Source: Rubripirellula sp.
Lineage (GTDB): Bacteria > Planctomycetota > Planctomycetia > Pirellulales > Pirellulaceae
Length of the DNA stretch: 64,000 nt
Direction: 5' to 3'
NCBI GenBank assembly: GCA_965216875.1
Contig: OZ244207.1
Location: forward strand, 2,496,001-2,560,000
In this document: piece after piece, positions 16,371-26,948 of the stretch
Layout of the letters: the number at the start of each line of letters is the position of its first letter
Numbering within the stretch: position 1 is the first letter of the stretch
Position numbers and translations under genes: made by a program
Notes under the pieces: generated by a model
The model's input: the letters and a program-made list of their open reading frames with translations, nothing else
What the model was told of the DNA's origin: nothing
Database searches by the model: none

Positions 16371-17492
16371 CTAGGCCGGGGAGGGACGGCCAAAGAAAAA
16401 GCCTTGGGCGAGATCGAAGCCGAGTTCTTTACAAACCTCGGCTTCCTCTTTGGTCTCGATCCCTTCGGCGAGTGATTTGATGTCGAGGTCGCGTACCATC
16501 TGGACAAGCGACGAAAGCATCCGGCGACGATTGTCATCGGCGCGATCGATTTCGCGAATCAACGAGATATCAAATTTGACGAAATCAGGCCGAGCTTCGA
16601 TCAACTCGGCGAGTCTTGCTTGCCCCGAACCAAAGTCGTCGTAGGCGAGCTGAATATCAAGGTCCTTCAGTGCGCTGTGCAGTGACTGCATCAGCGCCGG
16701 GTTGGTCACTGCCGACTCATGGATTTCCAAGACCAGATCGGTATTGCCGGTCATCTCGCGGACGTTTCGAAGAGATTCGATCAGTCCTTGACCGTCTTCC
16801 ATTTCGCGTGGGTGAGTGTTGACGAAGAGCGTCGGCCGCTCGGGCAGATCGCGCCCAACGCGAATCCCTTCCCAACGCAGCAGTCGACTCAACTCGACTT
16901 CCAAGTTCAATTGCTCGGCAGCTTGGAACATTGCCGCTACCGATTCGAGACCGAAGACGCTACCGCGACCGAGGATCTCAAATCCGATCAACTTGCCGTC
17001 ATCGATCAACACGATCGGTTGGAAGTGTGGTTTGACCAACCGTTCGCTCATCAGGCGGTCAAACTGAACCAACGCAAGCGCTTGGTCACAGACATTCTCG
17101 GCGATCGTTCCTGCCGTCATGCCGGTAGGCGATTGACGTCGAACGCGGAACGGTGCTTCGGCGAAATGGATCAAGTCCTCTTCGCTGACACGGACGGTCG
17201 TCTCTCGATCGACACGCGTGCCGTTGATGTAGGTTCCGTTCGTGCTTCCAAGGTCTTTCAGAAACAGCGTGCCATCTTCGACCCAAAGCGATGCGTGGTT
17301 GCCGCTAACGGTGCGGAACTGAAGCTTCAGAGAGACGCCTGTCTTGCGGCCAACGATATAGGGGTTGCCATCAATCGGTGAATGAAGAACGGCCTCGCCC
17401 GGCTGGGTTGGTCCCGACAGAAACCAAACATCTTCGGTCACCACAGTGCTGCGGCGCAGACGTTCGATCGTAGCGTTGTCGACAGATGCCAT
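16371..17492 (-). CDS. FHA-EAL protein (putative phosphothreonine-binding c-di-GMP phosphodiesterase)
   Basis: FHA: IVGR, VSGNHA, DLGSTNGTYING. EAL: FQPI, FEILGR, LFVN, LEIHE, YDDFGSG, VKFD, AEGIE, AQGFFFGRP. Confidence 0.92.
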   Translation of the reverse strand: MASVDNATIERLRRSTVVTEDVWFLSGPTQPGEAVLHSPIDGNPYIVGRKTGVSLKLQFRTVSGNHASLWVEDGTLFLKDLGSTNGTYINGTRVDRETTVRVSEEDLIHFAEAPFRVRRQSPTGMTAGTIAENVCDQALALVQFDRLMSERLVKPHFQPIVLIDDGKLIGFEILGRGSVFGLESVAAMFQAAEQLNLEVELSRLLRWEGIRVGRDLPERPTLFVNTHPREMEDGQGLIESLRNVREMTGNTDLVLEIHESAVTNPALMQSLHSALKDLDIQLAYDDFGSGQARLAELIEARPDFVKFDISLIREIDRADDNRRRMLSSLVQMVRDLDIKSLAEGIETKEEAEVCKELGFDLAQGFFFGRPSPA

Positions 17493-17872
17493 TGGTCGGA
17501 GGCTGAGCTTGGGGTCTTTGTTTGGTTTTTCCTATCGCCACGTTGGAGACGCTCCAGTCACGAGCTTTTTGACGTCTTCAATTGGGCATTTCGGAATGGA
17601 CGGGAAACTGGAGTTCGATCCCCGCCCGACAAATCTAGGTCAGGTTTCCCCCCAAGCTAGTGAGAAGGCGAAATTTCTTCGAAGACGCTTGATTGCCGCT
17701 GTCGCTCAGGCGGCGCCGGCAAAAGTCCGCTCAACAATCCATTGCTGCACCATTCCTGAATCCCCCGCCGGGATTCCCCACCAGACTGGGAAATACGAGC
17801 TAGGTTTCAGAGATTCGTCGTGCGCGTGCGCGCACCACGGGTCTCCCAAACCCTACAGCACGCAAAACCATT

Positions 17873-19198
17873 ATGACGGCCTTAACCAACGAGACACACA
17901 CGTTTGAACCAAGCCTGCTTGGTGGGCTACTTTCAGACGACACCTTCTGGCCAACGCCACCACAAGACCTTGGTGAGACCGGTCTGAGTGAGTCCTATAT
18001 TGAAGGACTCGTGATCAAGACCATCTTGGTCGGGGGAACAGTCAGTGGACGCGATGTCGCTGAACGCATCGGGATGCCCTTTCGCGTCATCGAGCCAATG
18101 CTGGATGTGTTGCGAACACGCAAGATCGTCTCTCACGTTCGACCCGCAGCGTTCAACGACTATTACTTCTCGCTCACCGAAGCGGGTCAAAAGCGTGCTC
18201 GATCCGAGATGCAGCAATGCAGTTATGTCGGGCCCGCCCCCGTACCGCTAAACGACTATGTCCTTAGTGTTGAAGCACAAGCAGCTGGCCTGGAACCGAT
18301 CGATCGCGACCAACTGCGGGTCGCGCTTTCATCGATCTCCTACCAAGACGAACTGCTCGACCAACTTGGGCCGGCAATCAACAGCAACACTGGTCTGTTT
18401 CTGTTCGGCCCTCCGGGTAACGGAAAAACGACAATCGCACGTTGCTTGACCCAATGTTTGGGCCAGGAAGTTTGGATTCCTCACGCGGTGATCGATGACG
18501 GCAACCTCATCAAAGTGCAGGACGATGCGTTTCATCGCTTAGCACCGATTCCCGAAGCGGACGGCCAGATCCTTAAGGCGCAAGAGTGGGATCGTCGTTG
18601 GTTGCGCATCCAACGTCCGACCGTCATCGTCGGTGGTGAATTGGTGATGGATAACCTGGAAGTGCGGCATGACGAACGTTCCAACGTTTGCGAAGCCCCG
18701 TTGCAAATGAAGAGCAATTGCGGCTGCCTGCTCATCGACGACTTTGGACGGCAACGTGTTGCGCCCGAAGAGCTTCTGAATCGCTGGATCGTTCCGCTGG
18801 AGAACAACCAGGACTTCTTGACGCTTCCGACCGGCAAGAAGATTCAAATTCCCTTTGAACAGCTGATCGTTTTTTCGACCAATCTCGACCCTGGCGAACT
18901 CGTTGACGAGGCGTTCCTTAGACGCGTTCCTTACAAGGTGTTTGTGGGCGATCCGTCGGCCGATGAATTCAAGCAGCTGATGCAGGGCGTGTTGCAATCC
19001 ATGGGTTTCCCCGACACCCCCGAGGCCTCGGAGCACTTGCTGAAGTTCTACGCAACAACAGGAAAGAGCCCGCGCCGCTGCCACCCCCGCGACTTGCTGA
19101 CGCAAGTTGCCAACTTCTGCAAGTACCGAAAAATGCCGATGACCCTGCGACCGGAATACCTCGACCAAGCCTGCCGCAGCTATTTCAGCCAACTGTAA
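17873..19198 (+). CDS. AAA+ ATPase with N-terminal winged-helix-like region
   Basis: Walker A GPPGNGKTT; Walker B LLIDDFGRQ; FSTNL; DEAFLRR arginine-finger region. Confidence 0.88.
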   Translation: MTALTNETHTFEPSLLGGLLSDDTFWPTPPQDLGETGLSESYIEGLVIKTILVGGTVSGRDVAERIGMPFRVIEPMLDVLRTRKIVSHVRPAAFNDYYFSLTEAGQKRARSEMQQCSYVGPAPVPLNDYVLSVEAQAAGLEPIDRDQLRVALSSISYQDELLDQLGPAINSNTGLFLFGPPGNGKTTIARCLTQCLGQEVWIPHAVIDDGNLIKVQDDAFHRLAPIPEADGQILKAQEWDRRWLRIQRPTVIVGGELVMDNLEVRHDERSNVCEAPLQMKSNCGCLLIDDFGRQRVAPEELLNRWIVPLENNQDFLTLPTGKKIQIPFEQLIVFSTNLDPGELVDEAFLRRVPYKVFVGDPSADEFKQLMQGVLQSMGFPDTPEASEHLLKFYATTGKSPRRCHPRDLLTQVANFCKYRKMPMTLRPEYLDQACRSYFSQL

Positions 19199-19235
19199 TG
19201 ACGCCCGAACAAGCCCCGCTTCCAAGCAATTTGCG

Positions 19236-22200
19236 ATGAACGCAACCGAAACCAAAAAGATCGGACCAGGATACGTGCCGATCCCCGGATACACGCTCGA
19301 GGAAATGCTCGGTCGTGGGGGATTTGGCGAAGTCTGGCGCGCTGATGCCCCCGGTGGACTGAAGAAGGCGGTCAAGTTCGTGTTTGGTTCTCAGGATCAA
19401 TCACGTGCTTCGCGCGAGCTTCGGTCGCTCGAGCGCATCCGAGGCGTGCACCATCCGTTCCTGTTGACGCTGGAACGTTTTGAAATCGTGGAAGACCAAC
19501 TTGTGGTCGTAACGGAACTTGCCGACGGTTCACTTGAAGACGTCTACAAACGCCATCGAGAACATGGCTCGTGTGGGATTCCGCGCGACGCTTTGATTTC
19601 GCACCTGCAAGACGCTGCCGACGCACTCGATTACCTTCACGAGAAGTACCAGCTTCAACATCTCGATATCAAGCCTGGCAATTTGCTCACAGTGGGCGGC
19701 CACGTCAAAGTCGCCGACTTCGGGCTTCTCAAAGACTTGACCGAGGCGGAGTGCAGCATTGTCGGCGGCCTGACCCCGATCTACGCACCGCCGGAAGTGT
19801 TCGACGGTAAGCCAAGTCTGCACAGCGACCAGTACAGCTTGGCCGTGATGTATCAGGAGTTGCTGACGGGAACGCGACCATTCAGCGGGCGGACCATCGC
19901 CCAGCTCGCGACGCAACATGTTCACAGCGCGCCCAACCTCGAAGCCCTTCCGCCAAGCGATCGGCCGGTTGTTGCGCGCGCCCTGGAAAAGGACCCGACG
20001 CGTCGATTCGACAACTGCACCGAGTTCGTCAACGCGTTGCATAGCCCGCGCACCCGAACCGTCGTCATTTCGAGCGACGACCTTGAAGACCAAGGCGAAG
20101 CGCCGCAAGTTGTCGAGGACTTGCCACAGCTTGGTGGACACGACAGTGTCAGCGAACATGTTCGAAGTCATGCGTTGGTCGTTGCGCTCGGTGGGACGGG
20201 TGCGGACTGCTTGCGCGAATTGCGACAACGATGCTGTGACCTGCATTCGGCGACGCCCATCGATTTGCACGGCGTGCTGATTGATACCGATATCGCAACG
20301 TTGCATTCGATGCGTGTTGGGGAAGCCTCCGAACGTGTTACCAAGTGCGTTAACATCCATATCCCACTTCGGAGCGCTCACGACTATCGTCAAGAGGGAA
20401 CGGATCGACTTGGCACCATCTCGCGCCGTTGGATCTACAACGTCCCGCGAAGCCGTTCAACAGAAGGGATGCGACCGCTTGGTCGTCTTGCACTGGTCGA
20501 TCATGGTCAAGACTTCATGCGTCAGCTCGCACAAGCGGTTGAACAACTGAAACAATCGGCCGGAAGCGAAAAGCCACGCATTTATGTCGTCGGCTCCCTT
20601 TCCGGCGGGACAGCGAGCGGAATCTATATCGATGTCGTCCACGTGTTACGACATCTGCTTGACCAAGCCGGCATGGAGGAAACCGAAATCCTTTCGATGT
20701 TGTCGGCAACTGAATTCCGAGCCGACCCCGCATCACCACTTGCTCTGCACGACACCCATGCAGCAACAATCGAGCTGCAACATTTCATGCGTCCCGGAAA
20801 CAGTTACCCCGGCGACGCCGGTGCGGGGTTCCCAAGCGTTCCCGCTGCACGGTCGCCGCTAAAGAACCTTTACCTCGTCGCGATGGGGCCTCGGTCGAGC
20901 GCAACACCTTCACCGGTCAATGCGATTACCGACTACGTCTGGACGGACGCGAGCGGCGGTGGTGACTTGCTTGCTGCCGCGCGGAAAATCGCATCCGACG
21001 ATCGTTCCAGCGCCGTTGGCGAGCCGATGCTTCGCTCCGTCGGACTGGTCGCACTTGGCGTCGCGAGATCGCTCGAGCAGAAACTTCTTACGCCAGCGAC
21101 CGTCAAGGTCATGCTGGTACGATGGCTGGGACTGCCGTCGACGGCGCGCGACCTTGCCGCTCCGGTCGCCGACAGGCTGATTCGCCGATGCGCCATCTCA
21201 AGACAAGCCTTCTTCGATGCCACGCTTGACTTGTTGGGCGCCGACGAGGACGAGCGCACCGACCGACTGTCAAATCATTTGATGAATTTGCCGAAGTCAG
21301 TCCTTTCGGATGATCACGAACTTGGCGAGAACATCTACCAACTACTGCGCAGCCACAACAGCGTCGAGCATGACTTGATGCTCGAGTCGGTACTGACCAA
21401 TCTGCGTCGCGAGATTTCGGTATCGCTGCATGATGGCCGCGTGGACATCACGACCGTCGTCGAAACGCTCAAGCTGCTGATCCAATCCGCAAAGGAACTC
21501 CCGATCGAGGCCGAACTGGTCGACGAGGAAGGCGCCGAGCAAGACGAGCCGCCAATGAACCCAGCGGCGCAGCGTCAGGCCCGACAGCATCGCATTGTCG
21601 CCCAACAGGTCGATCGCATTGCATCGGAACGATTGAATCGCTTGTGCGCCACCCTCGCCGCGCTCCAGGCAAGTTTCGAAACCTTCGCGACGAGCTTGGC
21701 GATGGCCATCGTTCAAACAACCAAAGAACAATCCAACGAAGCCAATCCCTGGGACGAGATGCCAGAGGAAATTCAGGCCCACCTCGAACCCACCCTTGAA
21801 AAGCTGCATGAACTCGCCGGCACCCGCTGGCTCCTCCGTCCATTGACTGACGGCTCTGGCGTCGACGCAAAAGAAATGGTCGCGGACATGACCGACGAAG
21901 CGATGCCGCTGGTTCGGGAAATCTTTGGCGATGGCGAGTTTCAAGACGACACCGACAGTGAAGCGCTTTCGCAATCGATGACGCTTACCGACATGACCGT
22001 CGCGCTGCCCGGCATCGCCGACCCGATGGGCGAATCAACGCTGGTCACGCAGGCACTTTCTTCGACAGGCTTCGCTACGAAGCATACCGAGGGCCCGCTA
22101 CCGGTCGAACAAGCAATCCGCGCCGTTCGCCCTGAACTGCTAGCGCACGGCGGACAACAACGCGTGCTCTTGGTTGTGGGAACAGAAGCCGAGCAAAAGC

Positions 22201-22394
22201 AGCTCGAGCCCAAAGTTCGCGAGCTCTTCGATGGCGCGTTGACCGTCGCAATGATCCCCGGTGCAACGCCCAAACTGATTCACGAGGCCCAGCAAATCGA
22301 ACTCAAGCAAGTTCTCGCGGCACTCAATCGCCTCAACGGCGGCAATGCCCAGATCACGTCGCGTCTGATCACACGCACCGACGTCAACTGGTAG
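19236..22394 (+). CDS. Ser/Thr protein kinase fused to an FtsZ/tubulin-like domain (Tubulin_2/FtsZl1-type) and a helical C-terminus
   Basis: Kinase: LGRGGFGEVW, AVK, HLDIKPGN, DFG, YAPPE, SDQYSLA. Tubulin-like: LVVALGGTG, LIDTD, RPLGRLAL, VVGSLSGGTASG. Confidence 0.9.
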   Translation: MNATETKKIGPGYVPIPGYTLEEMLGRGGFGEVWRADAPGGLKKAVKFVFGSQDQSRASRELRSLERIRGVHHPFLLTLERFEIVEDQLVVVTELADGSLEDVYKRHREHGSCGIPRDALISHLQDAADALDYLHEKYQLQHLDIKPGNLLTVGGHVKVADFGLLKDLTEAECSIVGGLTPIYAPPEVFDGKPSLHSDQYSLAVMYQELLTGTRPFSGRTIAQLATQHVHSAPNLEALPPSDRPVVARALEKDPTRRFDNCTEFVNALHSPRTRTVVISSDDLEDQGEAPQVVEDLPQLGGHDSVSEHVRSHALVVALGGTGADCLRELRQRCCDLHSATPIDLHGVLIDTDIATLHSMRVGEASERVTKCVNIHIPLRSAHDYRQEGTDRLGTISRRWIYNVPRSRSTEGMRPLGRLALVDHGQDFMRQLAQAVEQLKQSAGSEKPRIYVVGSLSGGTASGIYIDVVHVLRHLLDQAGMEETEILSMLSATEFRADPASPLALHDTHAATIELQHFMRPGNSYPGDAGAGFPSVPAARSPLKNLYLVAMGPRSSATPSPVNAITDYVWTDASGGGDLLAAARKIASDDRSSAVGEPMLRSVGLVALGVARSLEQKLLTPATVKVMLVRWLGLPSTARDLAAPVADRLIRRCAISRQAFFDATLDLLGADEDERTDRLSNHLMNLPKSVLSDDHELGENIYQLLRSHNSVEHDLMLESVLTNLRREISVSLHDGRVDITTVVETLKLLIQSAKELPIEAELVDEEGAEQDEPPMNPAAQRQARQHRIVAQQVDRIASERLNRLCATLAALQASFETFATSLAMAIVQTTKEQSNEANPWDEMPEEIQAHLEPTLEKLHELAGTRWLLRPLTDGSGVDAKEMVADMTDEAMPLVREIFGDGEFQDDTDSEALSQSMTLTDMTVALPGIADPMGESTLVTQALSSTGFATKHTEGPLPVEQAIRAVRPELLAHGGQQRVLLVVGTEAEQKQLEPKVRELFDGALTVAMIPGATPKLIHEAQQIELKQVLAALNRLNGGNAQITSRLITRTDVNW

Positions 22395-22401
22395 CCGCAA
22401 C

Positions 22402-23304
22402 CTAGGCGACAGCCGCTTCACGCTCGAAGAACGCCCATTGCGGGTGCTTGAAGAGAAGATTGTCATAGGCGTAACTGGCGGCGATGTCGTGTCGCTGCAT
22501 TTCGCACCTACGATAATCGTAAACTTCGTAGCCAAGGTCTTGCAGGAAGGTCACGTTTTCGCGACAGGGCTTGTTGCCAGTCTTTTGAGTGATCCCGTCG
22601 CCCATTTCGAGACTGATCGCAGGCCGTGAACGTTGGATAATCTCCGCCATCCCTTCGAGGATCGGTCCCTCAGCGCCTTCGGCGTCAATCTTCAAAAAGT
22701 CAGGGTCGCGATGATCGCTCGCGAACTCGTCAAGCTTGACCGCAGGCACCTTGATCATTCGCCCGCTGACGATATGGGCCGGATCCACGCTTGATTGGTC
22801 GTTGACAATGAAATTGACCGAACTGCCGTTGAGCCCTTGATCCCAAAACGAAATCTCGCCAGATTCGCGAAAGGCTGCGACATTGTGACACGAAATGTTT
22901 TCGCGGCGTTCGGCGTTGGATGAAAGAACGCTGTAGGTGTTCGAAGTCGGTTCAAAAGCGAAAACATGGCCCTCATCGCCAACCAAAGCCGACGCAAGCA
23001 GGCTGAAATATCCGAAGTGGGATCCGACGTCATAGACAACCATTCCCGGACGCAGGACGTCAATGAACATGGAAGTCAAATCAGCTTCGAAGAAACCACT
23101 CTGCCCGATCTTGGAAGACACGTATTCGGGATAGACGATCGTCATCTTCTGGCCCCAAAACAGCTCCGTTTCGCGACGGCGTGGGCGGCCCGTCCACTTG
23201 GCAACCTTCTTGGTCACACGCCAGTCGATCCAGCGGGGGAGCCGATTGAGGGTTGATTGGTGGCGACAGTTTTCCCAAAGTCGGCTTAGCTCAGTGCGGT
23301 CCAC
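22402..23304 (-). CDS. FkbM-family methyltransferase
   Basis: YDVGSHFGYFS, VFAFEP, FLKIDAEGAE. Confidence 0.9.
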   Translation of the reverse strand: MDRTELSRLWENCRHQSTLNRLPRWIDWRVTKKVAKWTGRPRRRETELFWGQKMTIVYPEYVSSKIGQSGFFEADLTSMFIDVLRPGMVVYDVGSHFGYFSLLASALVGDEGHVFAFEPTSNTYSVLSSNAERRENISCHNVAAFRESGEISFWDQGLNGSSVNFIVNDQSSVDPAHIVSGRMIKVPAVKLDEFASDHRDPDFLKIDAEGAEGPILEGMAEIIQRSRPAISLEMGDGITQKTGNKPCRENVTFLQDLGYEVYDYRRCEMQRHDIAASYAYDNLLFKHPQWAFFEREAAVA

Positions 23305-23528: not shown

Positions 23529-23834
23529 ATGATGGCGATGACGATGTTTTTGTTGGCTGACAACTACGCCGAAGCTGCAACCATTGCGATCGCTGGCATG
23601 CTGATCGTCGGTTGTGCCCTCACCCTAATCAGCTTGTTCATTGCGGCCCTTCCCAAGGTGCTCGGGCTGATCGAAAAGCGATGGCCCGAAGTCGATGACG
23701 GCCATGGCAACCGCAGCCACCCCGAAAGCCAAGTGCCCGACGACGGAGCCGTCTTGGCCGCGATCGGATTTGTGCTGCACACGGAGCTGCAAAAACAGAT
23801 CGACCAAGAACAGTCCGCTTCGAAATCGAAGTAG
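23529..23834 (+). CDS. oadG: Na+-translocating decarboxylase gamma subunit
   Basis: Single TM (GMLIVG.AL), AVLAAIG motif; precedes oadB. Confidence 0.8.
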   Translation: MMAMTMFLLADNYAEAATIAIAGMLIVGCALTLISLFIAALPKVLGLIEKRWPEVDDGHGNRSHPESQVPDDGAVLAAIGFVLHTELQKQIDQEQSASKSK

Positions 23835-23884
23835 CAACGTGAGATGAAGACAAGAGCGCATTGAAGGGTTTCGAAAGGACGTAG

Positions 23885-25051
23885 ATGGATATCCTCCGTG
23901 AATTCTTGAGCACGACGGGCTTTGCCACATTGACGTTTGGCAACGCCGTCATGATCGTGATCGGCATCGCCTTTATCACCTTGGCGATCACCAAGGACTA
24001 CGAACCGCTGCTGCTTGTGCCCATTGGCATGGGTGCTATCGTCGGCAATATCCCCATCGTCGAGGGGATGTCGATGTCGGTGTACGACATGCATCAGTTC
24101 GTGCTTGAGGGAGACGAAGTCAAGTATGAAATGGGTAGCGTGCTGAGCTACCTTTACTTTGGGGTCAGCTACGGCATTTACCCGCCGCTGATCTTCCTTG
24201 GCATCGGCGCGATGACCGACTTTTCGACGATGCTCTCCAATCCCAAACTCGTACTGCTTGGCGCTGCCGCACAAATCGGAGTCTTCTTGACGTTGTTTGG
24301 CGCAGTCGGACTCGGTTTCGATCTGCTCGAAGCGGGAGCAATCGGAATCATCGGCGGCGCCGACGGCCCAACGGCGATCTTCCTGGCATCAAAACTTGCG
24401 CCCGATCTGCTTGGTGCGATCGCGATTGCCGCCTATTCCTACATGGCGCTCGTGCCGGTCATCCAGCCGCCGATCATGAAGCTGTTGACGACGCGCGAAG
24501 AACGGCTGATCCGGATGAAGCCACCGCGTAACGTTTCCAAACGTGAAAAGATGATCTTTCCGATCGCGGCGTTTCTGATTTCAACCATGATCGCGCCAGG
24601 CGCGGTCGTTTTGCTTGGCATGCTGTTCTTTGGCAATCTGCTCAAGGAAAGCCTTGTCACCGAACGCTTGGCTGCAACCGCCCGAGCCGCGATGATCGAC
24701 ATCGTCACCATCCTGCTCGGTTTTTCGGTCGGTGCGAGCACTCAAGCCCAAACATTCCTGACCCGCGAATCGCTGCAGATCTTTGGTCTGGGCGCCCTCT
24801 CGTTTGCCGTGGCGACCGCGGGTGGTGTTCTGTTCGCCAAGTTCATGAACCTCTTCCTGAAAGAAAAGATCAATCCGCTTGTTGGCGCCGCGGGCGTTTC
24901 GGCCGTCCCTGATTCGGCCCGCGTCGTTCAAATGGTTGGCCAGCAAGAGGACCCCCACAATTTCTTGTTGATGCATGCGATGGCACCAAATGTTGCCGGA
25001 GTGATTGGGTCGGCGATTGCCGCGGGCGTGCTTTGGTCTGTGCTTACGTGA
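23885..25051 (+). CDS. oadB: Na+-translocating decarboxylase beta subunit
   Basis: YEPLLLVPIG, GAMTDF, GIIGGADGPT, AGVSAVP, HAMAPNVAGVIGSA. Confidence 0.95.
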   Translation: MDILREFLSTTGFATLTFGNAVMIVIGIAFITLAITKDYEPLLLVPIGMGAIVGNIPIVEGMSMSVYDMHQFVLEGDEVKYEMGSVLSYLYFGVSYGIYPPLIFLGIGAMTDFSTMLSNPKLVLLGAAAQIGVFLTLFGAVGLGFDLLEAGAIGIIGGADGPTAIFLASKLAPDLLGAIAIAAYSYMALVPVIQPPIMKLLTTREERLIRMKPPRNVSKREKMIFPIAAFLISTMIAPGAVVLLGMLFFGNLLKESLVTERLAATARAAMIDIVTILLGFSVGASTQAQTFLTRESLQIFGLGALSFAVATAGGVLFAKFMNLFLKEKINPLVGAAGVSAVPDSARVVQMVGQQEDPHNFLLMHAMAPNVAGVIGSAIAAGVLWSVLT

Positions 25052-25112
25052 GCCACCTCGATTGAAGAATTGATCCAAAAAGCGGCGACTGCTTGTAAGA
25101 AGGAAAAGCAAC

Positions 25113-26948
25113 GTGTCGAAGAAGAAAGTCAAATTCATGTGCACCGCGTTCCGCGACGGATTCCAGTCCGTCTTCGGAGCCAGAGTCTTTACGCAAGACT
25201 TTTTGCCTGCGGTCCAAGCGGCGCGTGACGCCGGCATCACGTGGTTCGAAGCGGGCGGCGGCGCTCGATTCCAGTCGTTGTATTTTTATTGCAACGAAGA
25301 CGCCTTCGCGATGATGGATGCTTTTCGCGAAACGGCGGGCCCCGATGCCGATTTGCAAACGCTGGCTCGTGGCGTGAACGTCGTCGGACTCGATTCGCAA
25401 CCGAGCGACATCGTGCGTCTGCACGCGCAACTGTTCAAAAAGCACGGGATCACCACTATTCGCAACTTTGACGCGCTCAACGACGTCAACAACCTGATCT
25501 ACAGCGGCAAGTGCATTGTCGAAGCCGGCTTGAAGCACCAAGTCTGCGTCACCTTGATGGAACTGCCGCCAGGTTGCGAAGGGGCTCACGACGCCGCCTT
25601 CTACACCAAGACACTGCGTGAAATCTTGGACGCCGAAATCCCATTCGACGCGGTTTGTTTCAAAGACGCGTCGGGAACGGCCGTGCCTTCGAAGGTCTAC
25701 GAGACGATCAAAGAAGCACGCAAGATGTTGCCCGAAGACACATTCATTCACTTCCACACTCACGAAACAGCAGGCGTCAGCGTTCTTGCCAACAAAGCTG
25801 CTCTCGACGCCGGCGCCGACGCGATCGACCTTTCGATGGCTCCCTGCTCGGGCGGAACGTGCCAGCCCGACATCCTTGTGATGTGGCACGCCCTGCGCGG
25901 TTCAGACTACGAACTTGATGTCGATGTGGAAAAGGTGCGTGAAGCCGAAGAGGTCTTCAAGGACTGCATGAAGGATTACTTCTTGCCACCCGAAGCGACC
26001 GCGGTCGAACCACTCATTCCGTGGAGTCCCATGCCGGGCGGCGCGCTCACCGCGAACACTCAGATGTTGCGTGACAACAACATCATGGAAAAGTACCCCG
26101 AGATCATCCTGGCGATGAGCGACGTGGTGCGAAAGGGCGGCTACGGCACGTCAGTCACGCCCGTGTCACAATTTTATTTCCAACAGGCCTTCAATAACGT
26201 CATGTTTGGGCCCTGGAAAAAGATCGCCGAACCCTACGGCAAAATGGTACTCGGGTACTTTGGTCGCACACCCGTTGAACCCGATCCCGAAGTCGTCGCG
26301 CTCGCCAAAGAACAGCTCGAGCTCGAACCAACGACCAAACCGGTCCTGGAACTGAACGACGCCGACCCCACCAAGGGCGTGGACGTCGCAAAAGCCGATC
26401 TTGAAAAAGAGGGCTTGCCGATCACCGATGAAAACATCTTTATCGCGGCTGCTTGTAAAGACAAAGGAATCAAATTCCTTAAAGGCGAAGCCGAAATTGG
26501 CGTCCGGAAAATTGACCGCGAGGCGGAAGCGGCGGCGGCAGCTTCGACCACCGCCAAGCCTTCGAGCGGGCCAGCCGAATACACTGTCACGGTCAACGGC
26601 GAAGACATCTACATGGCCTTCGAAGGCAACATGGTGACGGTCGATGGCAAAGTCTATCGCGTTGCGATTCGCCCTGAAGACAAAACCGCGTCGCCCGATT
26701 CGAGTGGTGGGGGCAGCGGGGGCGGAGGAAAAATCACAGAGGTCAGTTCCCAGATGCCCGGCGCCGTCTACAAACAACTCGTCCATGCGGGCGACCACGT
26801 GCGAGCCGGTGAGCCGATGTTGATTCTTGAAGCGATGAAAATGGAGATGGAAATCCAGTCTCCCGTCGATGGAACGGTCGACGAGATTCGCTTTGCCGTC
26901 GGCGATCAAGTCGCCACCGGCCAAGTGCTGGCGACTGTCCGCTCCTAG
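25113..26948 (+). CDS. oadA: Oxaloacetate decarboxylase alpha subunit (carboxyltransferase + biotin carrier)
   Basis: FRDGFQS, FDALND, FKDASG, HFHTH, PGG, VTPVSQ, biotinylation motif EAMKM. Confidence 0.92.
   Translation: MSKKKVKFMCTAFRDGFQSVFGARVFTQDFLPAVQAARDAGITWFEAGGGARFQSLYFYCNEDAFAMMDAFRETAGPDADLQTLARGVNVVGLDSQPSDIVRLHAQLFKKHGITTIRNFDALNDVNNLIYSGKCIVEAGLKHQVCVTLMELPPGCEGAHDAAFYTKTLREILDAEIPFDAVCFKDASGTAVPSKVYETIKEARKMLPEDTFIHFHTHETAGVSVLANKAALDAGADAIDLSMAPCSGGTCQPDILVMWHALRGSDYELDVDVEKVREAEEVFKDCMKDYFLPPEATAVEPLIPWSPMPGGALTANTQMLRDNNIMEKYPEIILAMSDVVRKGGYGTSVTPVSQFYFQQAFNNVMFGPWKKIAEPYGKMVLGYFGRTPVEPDPEVVALAKEQLELEPTTKPVLELNDADPTKGVDVAKADLEKEGLPITDENIFIAAACKDKGIKFLKGEAEIGVRKIDREAEAAAAASTTAKPSSGPAEYTVTVNGEDIYMAFEGNMVTVDGKVYRVAIRPEDKTASPDSSGGGSGGGGKITEVSSQMPGAVYKQLVHAGDHVRAGEPMLILEAMKMEMEIQSPVDGTVDEIRFAVGDQVATGQVLATVRS

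Follow-up and report, generated by a model that had tools for sequence, protein, structure and literature searches.

A conserved planctomycete module joining a kinase-FtsZl1 fusion, a winged-helix ATPase and an FHA-EAL protein: a candidate c-di-GMP switch

Planctomycetes encode a divergent tubulin-like protein, FtsZl1 (Tubulin_2, PF13809), that occurs in fusions with an N-terminal kinase (Makarova and Koonin 2010; PMC2875224), and among the partner domains restricted to cytoplasmic kinases of planctomycetes the tubulin-like one is the commonest (PMC11032199). Additional file 5 of PMC2875224 lists an FHA-phosphodiesterase neighbour for Pirellula staleyi and, for Blastopirellula marina, an FHA protein. 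A reviewer of that paper suggested a signalling role, and its authors discounted the phosphodiesterase link because it was limited to a few organisms. Elsewhere, the Bdellovibrio protein DgcB (FHA-GGDEF) binds its own threonine-bearing tail, with activation via this tail strongly suggested and the kinase acting on DgcB not identified in that paper (PMC6733907). Here we analyse a locus of Rubripirellula sp. (GCA_965216875.1, contig OZ244207.1, positions 2,496,001 to 2,560,000; hereafter the window, 64,000 nucleotides) in which a kinase-FtsZl1 fusion lies with genes for a winged-helix ATPase and an FHA-EAL protein.

We found that this module is real and conserved; its kinase-FtsZl1 fusion and FHA-EAL neighbour were already known from 2010 (PMC2875224), and no ATPase neighbour appears in the rows consulted of Additional file 5. 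From conserved residues and gene order, we tentatively favour the reading that the three genes form a cytoplasmic module acting as a kinase-gated switch of cyclic di-GMP (c-di-GMP), probably serving surface attachment. A literature search that covered few subscription journals returned no work on the module as a set of three genes, on the enzyme-dead version described below or on the ATPase family, no paper linking the ATPase to the fusion or an MshEN repeat to the winged-helix ATPase family, and no functional study of FtsZl1 proteins or of c-di-GMP control in planctomycetes. PMC10936438 and PMC12918737 contained no pertinent passages.

Organization of the locus and conserved residues

An earlier note, made from the letters of this DNA alone, had proposed three open reading frames (ORFs) separated by gaps of 380 bp and 37 bp, the latter between the ATPase and fusion genes. 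The frames, their lengths, their domains and both gaps all lie at the places given there.

16371..17492, minus strand: FHA-EAL protein, 373 amino acids (aa) (ORF list and Pfam)
17163..17360, minus strand: FHA domain, residues 45-110 (Pfam E 5e-17)
17106..17108, minus strand: codon of linker Thr129, a candidate regulatory phosphosite (conservation among copies with intact EAL domains)
16383..17057, minus strand: EAL domain, residues 146-370, with loop 6 reading DFGSGQAR (Pfam E 1e-41)
17493..17872, no strand: divergent intergenic region, 380 bp (ORF borders)
17797..17808, plus strand: promoter-like element 5' of the ATPase gene, probably a -10 box (conserved pattern)
17873..19198, plus strand: winged-helix and AAA+-type ATPase, 441 aa, unnamed family (ORF and invariant motifs)
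19236..22394, plus strand: Ser/Thr kinase-FtsZl1 (Tubulin_2) fusion, 1052 aa (ORF and Pfam)
19290..20012, plus strand: Hanks-type kinase domain, non-RD (HLD) (Pfam Pkinase, residues 19-259, E 1e-30)
20175..20879, plus strand: Tubulin_2/FtsZl1 GTP-binding domain (Pfam, residues 314-548, E 7e-23; motifs; hhalign)
22098..22391, plus strand: conserved C-terminal domain ending R..R.D..W (conservation in 73 homologues)

Transmembrane-like segments are absent from all three proteins (highest 19-residue hydropathy 1.3). The fusion carries the full Hanks set of glycine loop, VAIK lysine, catalytic aspartate, DFG and APE glutamate. Across 73 homologues, K47 and D144 are each kept in 72 and DFG and E187 in all, and the kinase is of the non-RD type, with HLD replacing HRD in 72 copies and HLN in one. 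The tubulin-like domain scores 82 bits against PF13809 (cut-off 27) and aligns by hhalign with a kinase-less planctomycete Tubulin_2 protein over 335 columns at probability 99.5. It contains the motifs LGGTG, DTD, EGMRPLGR and SLSGGTASG, which we take to be T1-, T2-, T3- and T4-like. Key glycines of these GTP-binding motifs are kept in 69-73 of the 73 copies; position 460, in T4, is Ala in the window copy (Gly in 57 and Ala in 9 of the 73). After the tubulin domain comes a probably helical middle part whose profile matches helical-bundle proteins only, then a C-terminal domain of ~100 residues marked by R1047 (70/73), D1049 (69/73) and W1052 (68/73). Residues 955-1052, which we had considered as a putative FtsZ-like C-terminal subdomain, gave no significant match in Pfam, PDB or Atlas.

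The FHA-EAL protein retains the FHA pocket residues G48, R49, S63, H66 and N85 and all nine catalytic or metal-binding positions of the EAL domain (E172, R176, N225, E256, D285, D286, K306, E343 and Q363), a list that we assume from RocR-type enzymes. It is thus predicted to be an active c-di-GMP phosphodiesterase with a phosphothreonine-binding domain. The potential for a writer, a reader and a phosphodiesterase, which the earlier note had read into the locus, is borne out in that catalytic motifs are intact in the kinase and EAL domains, as are the phosphothreonine-binding residues of FHA.

Comparison of 53 FHA-EAL proteins separated 28 with all nine EAL positions, which form one clade (support 1.00), from 25 without. 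The FHA pocket (G-R, S-x-x-H, N-G) is kept in 52/53, dead copies included. Thr129 is present in 28/28 intact copies and is the only invariant residue between the FHA and EAL domains; no column on either side (118-128 and 130-135) exceeds 17/28. It stands at the same raw offset in 25/28, usually in the context T-x-x-E/D, just before a conserved segment leading into the EAL domain. The dead group carries T-x-x-[ILMV] in the linker in 22/25 copies, and often in the N-tail as well. We take both contexts to resemble known FHA ligand patterns.

Distribution and an enzyme-dead version of the module

We mapped the module in an order-wide sample of 61 genomes, abbreviating the kinase-tubulin fusion as KT, FHA-EAL as FE, the ATPase as AAA and a REC-GGDEF-CBS protein as RGC. 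KT was found in 34/61 genomes at 37 loci, labelled with hidden Markov models built from these loci. FE lies nearby in 30 of the 37, AAA in 22 and both in 19, so the linkage across related genomes on which the earlier note had staked its proposal is there. The window layout, FE divergent from AAA-KT, accounts for 14/37 loci, and RGC divergent from FE'-KT for 15/37, with AAA adjoining RGC in 5 of these. FE-KT occurs once, AAA-KT is cut by a contig end in 3/37, and 4/37 lack both partners (one of them at a contig edge, one kinase-less and one with a decayed kinase).

FE' in the second layout denotes the dead FHA-EAL copies. Their REC-GGDEF-CBS partners lack the GGDEF motif in 25/25 cases; a 26th row, an intact neighbouring paralogue, was set apart from these. 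In this second module lineage both c-di-GMP enzymes are thus dead, and they would act as adaptors or receptors. The earlier note had missed this version, and likewise the ATPase family's links to MshEN, FHA and Tad described below.

A class-wide set of 40 loci was picked from 173 Tubulin_2 matches, favouring complete genomes and other families. Five are kinase-less FtsZl1 and fourteen belong to families f118 and f122, plausibly the Gemmata group; of the other 21, FE is present in 20 and AAA nearby in 18. GGDEF-FE-AAA-KT forms one gene run in 3 loci with an intact GGDEF motif (3/3) and, without the GGDEF gene, in 1 more. AAA-KT-FE occurs in 4 loci and KT-AAA-FE in 1, plus one looser variant. 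In total, six gene orders were seen across the class, and the FE link spans several families and orders. The backbone of the kinase-tubulin tree does not resolve, and we claim no order of rearrangements.

The named closest relatives are Pirellulaceae, such as Rubripirellula, Novipirellula and Stieleria. In the best 80 of 586 confirmed loci, a set of close kin that overlaps the other sample so that counts are not independent, AAA lies directly 5' of KT in 74/80 and FE is present in 62/80. Since a genome of 4-10 Mb holds no more than 1-5 close relatives of each gene, this linkage is far beyond chance. FHA-EAL, the ATPase and REC-GGDEF-CBS are the only recurrent KT neighbours in the gene maps; vWA, GTPase or OmpA partners do not recur there, most one-off neighbours being unscanned against Pfam. 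Cultured genera carrying the module are Stieleria, Novipirellula, Rubripirellula and Roseiconus. Tubulin_2 occurs in only 1/48 and 8/48 genomes of two other families, and a shallow search of 250 phylum-wide genomes found no full-length KT match outside the window's family.

Two partnerless copies have a decayed kinase (HLN, altered glycine loop) or lack the kinase domain (L061:8129-11482 and L062:410-3271); it looks as if partner loss relaxes the kinase, in two cases only. Tandem kinase-tubulin gene pairs occur in f118 (L071:8495-15753 and L076:6907-13969), a possible heteropolymer, and most f118 genomes carry three Tubulin_2 copies.

The pattern [AG]GCTA[GC][GC]TTT lies 5' of the ATPase gene in 28/71 named loci (shuffles: mean 0.3, maximum 2). 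A genome search with this motif gave 30 matches above 15 bits without a clear functional theme, one weak match preceding cpaF, and promoter and terminator scans gave chance-level results. Downstream of the fusion, an FkbM gene (22402-23304) lies outside the module and is common to one congener only. The genes at 23529-26948 encode a small membrane subunit, a 388-aa membrane protein and a 611-aa biotin-carrier protein, which from their translations we take to resemble an oxaloacetate decarboxylase-type sodium pump.

The own genome (8.26 Mb, 99% complete) has one tubulin-domain gene. It yielded no PF00091 (FtsZ) match, with 13/14 controls found, in line with the lack of canonical FtsZ that the earlier note had cited for planctomycetes. 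It encodes 11 GGDEF-motif ORFs, 5 HD-GYP domains, two Tad systems and only 2 EAL domains, and with so few EAL domains against 11 GGDEF ORFs this phosphodiesterase could matter. Pilus genes (cpaF, tadB, tadC, cpaB, pilin) are absent from the locus, and the genome's Tad genes lie >2 Mb away (C1:4.95-4.96 Mb, 6.478-6.483 Mb and 6.794-6.798 Mb, one system being split into two loci 0.3 Mb apart). Two DgcB-like FHA-GGDEF proteins, one with an intact GGEEF and a Thr-bearing N-tail (C1:2742172-2743146) and one degenerate (C1:1738032-1738961), are further candidate kinase substrates.

The winged-helix ATPase and its family

The ATPase falls below every Pfam and NCBIfam cut-off, with weak sub-cut-off matches to Mg_chelatase and MoxR. 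Its Walker A (GPPGNGK) and Walker B (IDD) motifs, STN and the pair R350/R351 do not vary among 21 aligned copies, bar P180/P181; the motif roles (Walker A and B, sensor 1, arginine finger) follow what we take to be the consensus. A structure model built from 21 sequences reached a mean pLDDT of 64, and only its winged helix is interpretable: residues 39-117 of the predicted model match MarR-type winged helices (best Z 11.6, root-mean-square deviation 2.8, 78 aligned). The low-confidence AAA core gave no structural match at E<=0.001 (Foldseek TM 0.12). Likeness to spastin was set aside; spastin and p97 sequence matches cover the Walker A region only. Nor was an N-tail phosphosite convincing, with T-x-x-hydrophobic in 19/44 anchored orthologues (shuffles: mean 10.4, maximum 22; five more orthologues without an anchor were left out).

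All 49 ATPases taken from genomes with the fusion group in a single clade (support 0.90). At E<=2e-136, a cut-off picked after the data were seen, a full-length match occurs in 31/34 genomes with the fusion and 0/27 without. The sister clade consists of paralogues adjoining an HDOD gene in 4/8 loci. The own genome has one paralogue of the ATPase (C1:3884126-3885400, L067; 45%), divergent from an HDOD gene, and this pairing also exists as a single fusion protein (P0245).

More widely, the ATPase family is large (1294 representatives at E<=1e-30). The relaxed MshEN motif published for MshE/PilB-type ATPases (PMC5013675) is present in 18/81 family ATPases from metagenome loci compared with 0/1553 other ORFs there, and half of the motif in 38/81; MshEN N-termini occur among the metagenome loci L214-L293, for example L232:5845-6021. 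One tested N-terminus matches MshE 5htl residues 9-60 at E 4e-7. Because Pfam recognises none of these short pieces (0/56), the assignment rests on the PDB match and the published motif. Among 30 long family representatives, an N-terminal FHA domain occurs in 3 and HDOD in 1. The window's own clade carries neither an MshEN nor an FHA extension.

Tad operons of Rhizobium, of Burkholderia and of 4 planctomycete genomes also contain family ATPases; for Rhizobium and Burkholderia, this held for the 3/3 annotated plasmid loci opened, of 76 matching records. Tad operons are nonetheless a minority setting, which agrees with the report that no additional protein is systematically tied to any pilus type (PMC6668835). 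An HD-GYP/PilZ/ATPase cassette was not found among 20 planctomycete ATPase-paralogue loci. Loci L128-L130, L313 and L306-L309 share a gene run made up of an unannotated gene of 220-236 aa, in most cases also a small ORF, then the ATPase gene and a TPR gene. The run comes after TadB/TadC, and in family f26 it persists as a unit where Tad genes are absent.

Proposed mechanism, alternatives and known systems

In the switch that we favour, the kinase-FtsZl1 fusion, judged by its motifs, would phosphorylate threonines, and its FtsZl1 part, by binding GTP or by oligomerising, would gate or localise the non-RD kinase. Its main target would be Thr129 of FHA-EAL, as conservation and the DgcB/OdhI precedent suggest. 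EAL enzymes need dimerisation; the FHA domain of a second copy would bind phosphorylated Thr129, the EAL domains would dimerise and phosphodiesterase activity would be switched. The ATPase may be an output or resetting motor, to judge from gene fusions and neighbours elsewhere, and would be coupled to c-di-GMP and phosphothreonine via its partner proteins, not via an MshEN or FHA domain of its own. In the cell, the module most likely controls surface attachment or pili and has no part in division. The budding-cycle role raised in the earlier note fares poorly: a part in division or budding is unlikely, mainly because presence is patchy, with no fusion found in 27/61 order genomes, and the scarcity of Tubulin_2 in the two other families and the partnerless f118/f122 loci speak against it as well.

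Counting for the switch are the six gene orders, the single ATPase clade, the kept EAL, Thr129 and FHA residues, the DgcB precedent and the family's MshEN, FHA, HDOD and Tad links. Several observations weigh against it. Loop 6 of the EAL domain, canonically DFGTGYSS or DFG[TA]GYSS, reads DFG[AS]GQ.R family-wide, with the first half kept and the second deviant, so phosphodiesterase activity is not assured. The ~60 other kinases of the own genome could be the phosphothreonine writer. FE is missing despite room in 11/80 named loci, of which 9 are Rhodopirellula sensu lato, and 10/15 dead-type loci have their ATPase elsewhere. The fourteen f118/f122 loci hold the fusion with neither partner, and four such genomes tested have ATPase matches no better than 31-42% and lack a full FHA-EAL. 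As for the ATPase, its sister clade is the HDOD-linked paralogues, not the Tad copies. The tandem 24-residue RLG motif of MshEN is found in 0/41 locus ATPases and 0/120 close homologues, and Tad core genes lie beside only 5/47 metagenome ATPases in loci >=6 kb, with a Tad setting in 1/20 further planctomycete paralogue loci.

It is unlikely, though the likeliest of the rivals, that the ATPase acts on DNA, as a ComM/YifB-like ring motor or a FleQ-like transcription regulator under kinase and c-di-GMP control. The modelled MarR-like winged helix would suit such a role, as would the JGI label 'predicted ATPase with chaperone activity', which we take to be COG0606 (the ComM/YifB group), a group whose motifs presumably resemble those of the ATPase. 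Winged helices serve protein contacts too, however; the genes flanking the loci include no conserved candidate for a target, the modelled AAA core is of low confidence and unmatched, and a place inside Tad operons suits a machine part better than a regulator. We consider quite improbable a stronger form of the earlier note's reading, in which the FtsZl1 part polymerises into a cytoskeletal scaffold that the ATPase dismantles in katanin/spastin-like fashion, serving budding or cell shape. The kept GTP-binding glycines, the long helical middle region, the lack of an FtsZ match in the own genome and the adjacency of ATPase and fusion, the tightest link among close relatives, fit that picture. It is countered by the patchy presence of the fusion, its apparent confinement to the window's family in the shallow search, the restriction of spastin/p97 matches to Walker A, the f118/f122 fusions without ATPase, the window's Ala in T4 and the finding of a tubulin-domain neighbour beside 0/80 metagenome family ATPases; moreover, the T6-H7 region needed for FtsZ filaments was not identifiable in FtsZl1 (Makarova and Koonin, PMC2875224).

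A speculative combination, to which we give still less weight, is that a tubulin-like polymer with a built-in kinase and a dedicated AAA+ remodeller forms a localised c-di-GMP sink, recruiting and switching FHA-EAL via phosphorylated Thr129 at one pole or in the bud; if true, this sink would set the asymmetry between sessile mother and swimmer daughter in FtsZ-less planctomycetes. Very improbable, too, is mere co-regulation, with the genes kept together for expression and sharing no complex. Partners do drift apart in some lineages and a promoter-like element is conserved 5' of the ATPase, but the six rearranged orders, the clade-level co-occurrence and the joint absence of the ATPase clade and FHA-EAL in f118/f122 point to functional coupling. 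Least probable of all, we surmise, is an anti-phage conflict system like the tubulin-bearing GAP1-N2 GTPase systems. Tubulin-domain proteins do occur in such systems (PMC7159879), and there are weak NCBIfam matches, far below cut-off, to IteA (52 residues ending at Walker A) and to the MAD6 kinase. Yet vWA, GTPase and variable effector genes are not among the recurrent neighbours of the fusion in the gene maps, which were not searched with PADLOC, and the genes are strongly conserved with trees that follow lineage.

The switch that we favour offers residue-level test points in Thr129, the FHA pocket, a kinase-dead variant and Walker B. With it, an FHA-controlled c-di-GMP enzyme would gain a cognate kinase, which was lacking in the DgcB study (PMC6733907), and the locus points to a large unnamed ATPase family repeatedly wired to c-di-GMP, phosphothreonine or Tad pili.

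Set against described systems, the window gene has the same domain and N-terminal kinase fusion as the FtsZl1 of PMC2875224, whose canonical operon has vWA, GTPase and OmpA partners that do not recur at window-type loci. The FHA-phosphodiesterase link, limited there to few organisms, here extends to several families and orders in six gene arrangements. In GAP1-N2 systems, described from firmicutes and actinobacteria, a tubulin-domain protein likewise belongs to a conserved cluster of genes and carries a helical or coiled-coil extension, as the window fusion probably does, but these systems have vWA, FNIII and GTPase genes, none of them recurrent at window-type loci (Kaur et al. 2020; PMC7159879). 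Other members of the ATPase's family carry MshEN, as do MshE/PilB-type motors, or sit in Tad/Flp operons, whereas the window ATPase is not a CpaF/PilB-type motor, its clade lacks MshEN and its locus lacks pilus genes. With the self-binding FHA switches DgcB and OdhI/GarA, the window FHA-EAL shares an FHA domain and a conserved threonine of its own as candidate ligand. DgcB is an FHA-GGDEF protein with its threonine in the N-terminal tail, whereas the window protein pairs FHA with a degrading EAL domain, has its threonine between FHA and enzyme and, unlike DgcB, has a candidate kinase encoded next door (PMC6733907).

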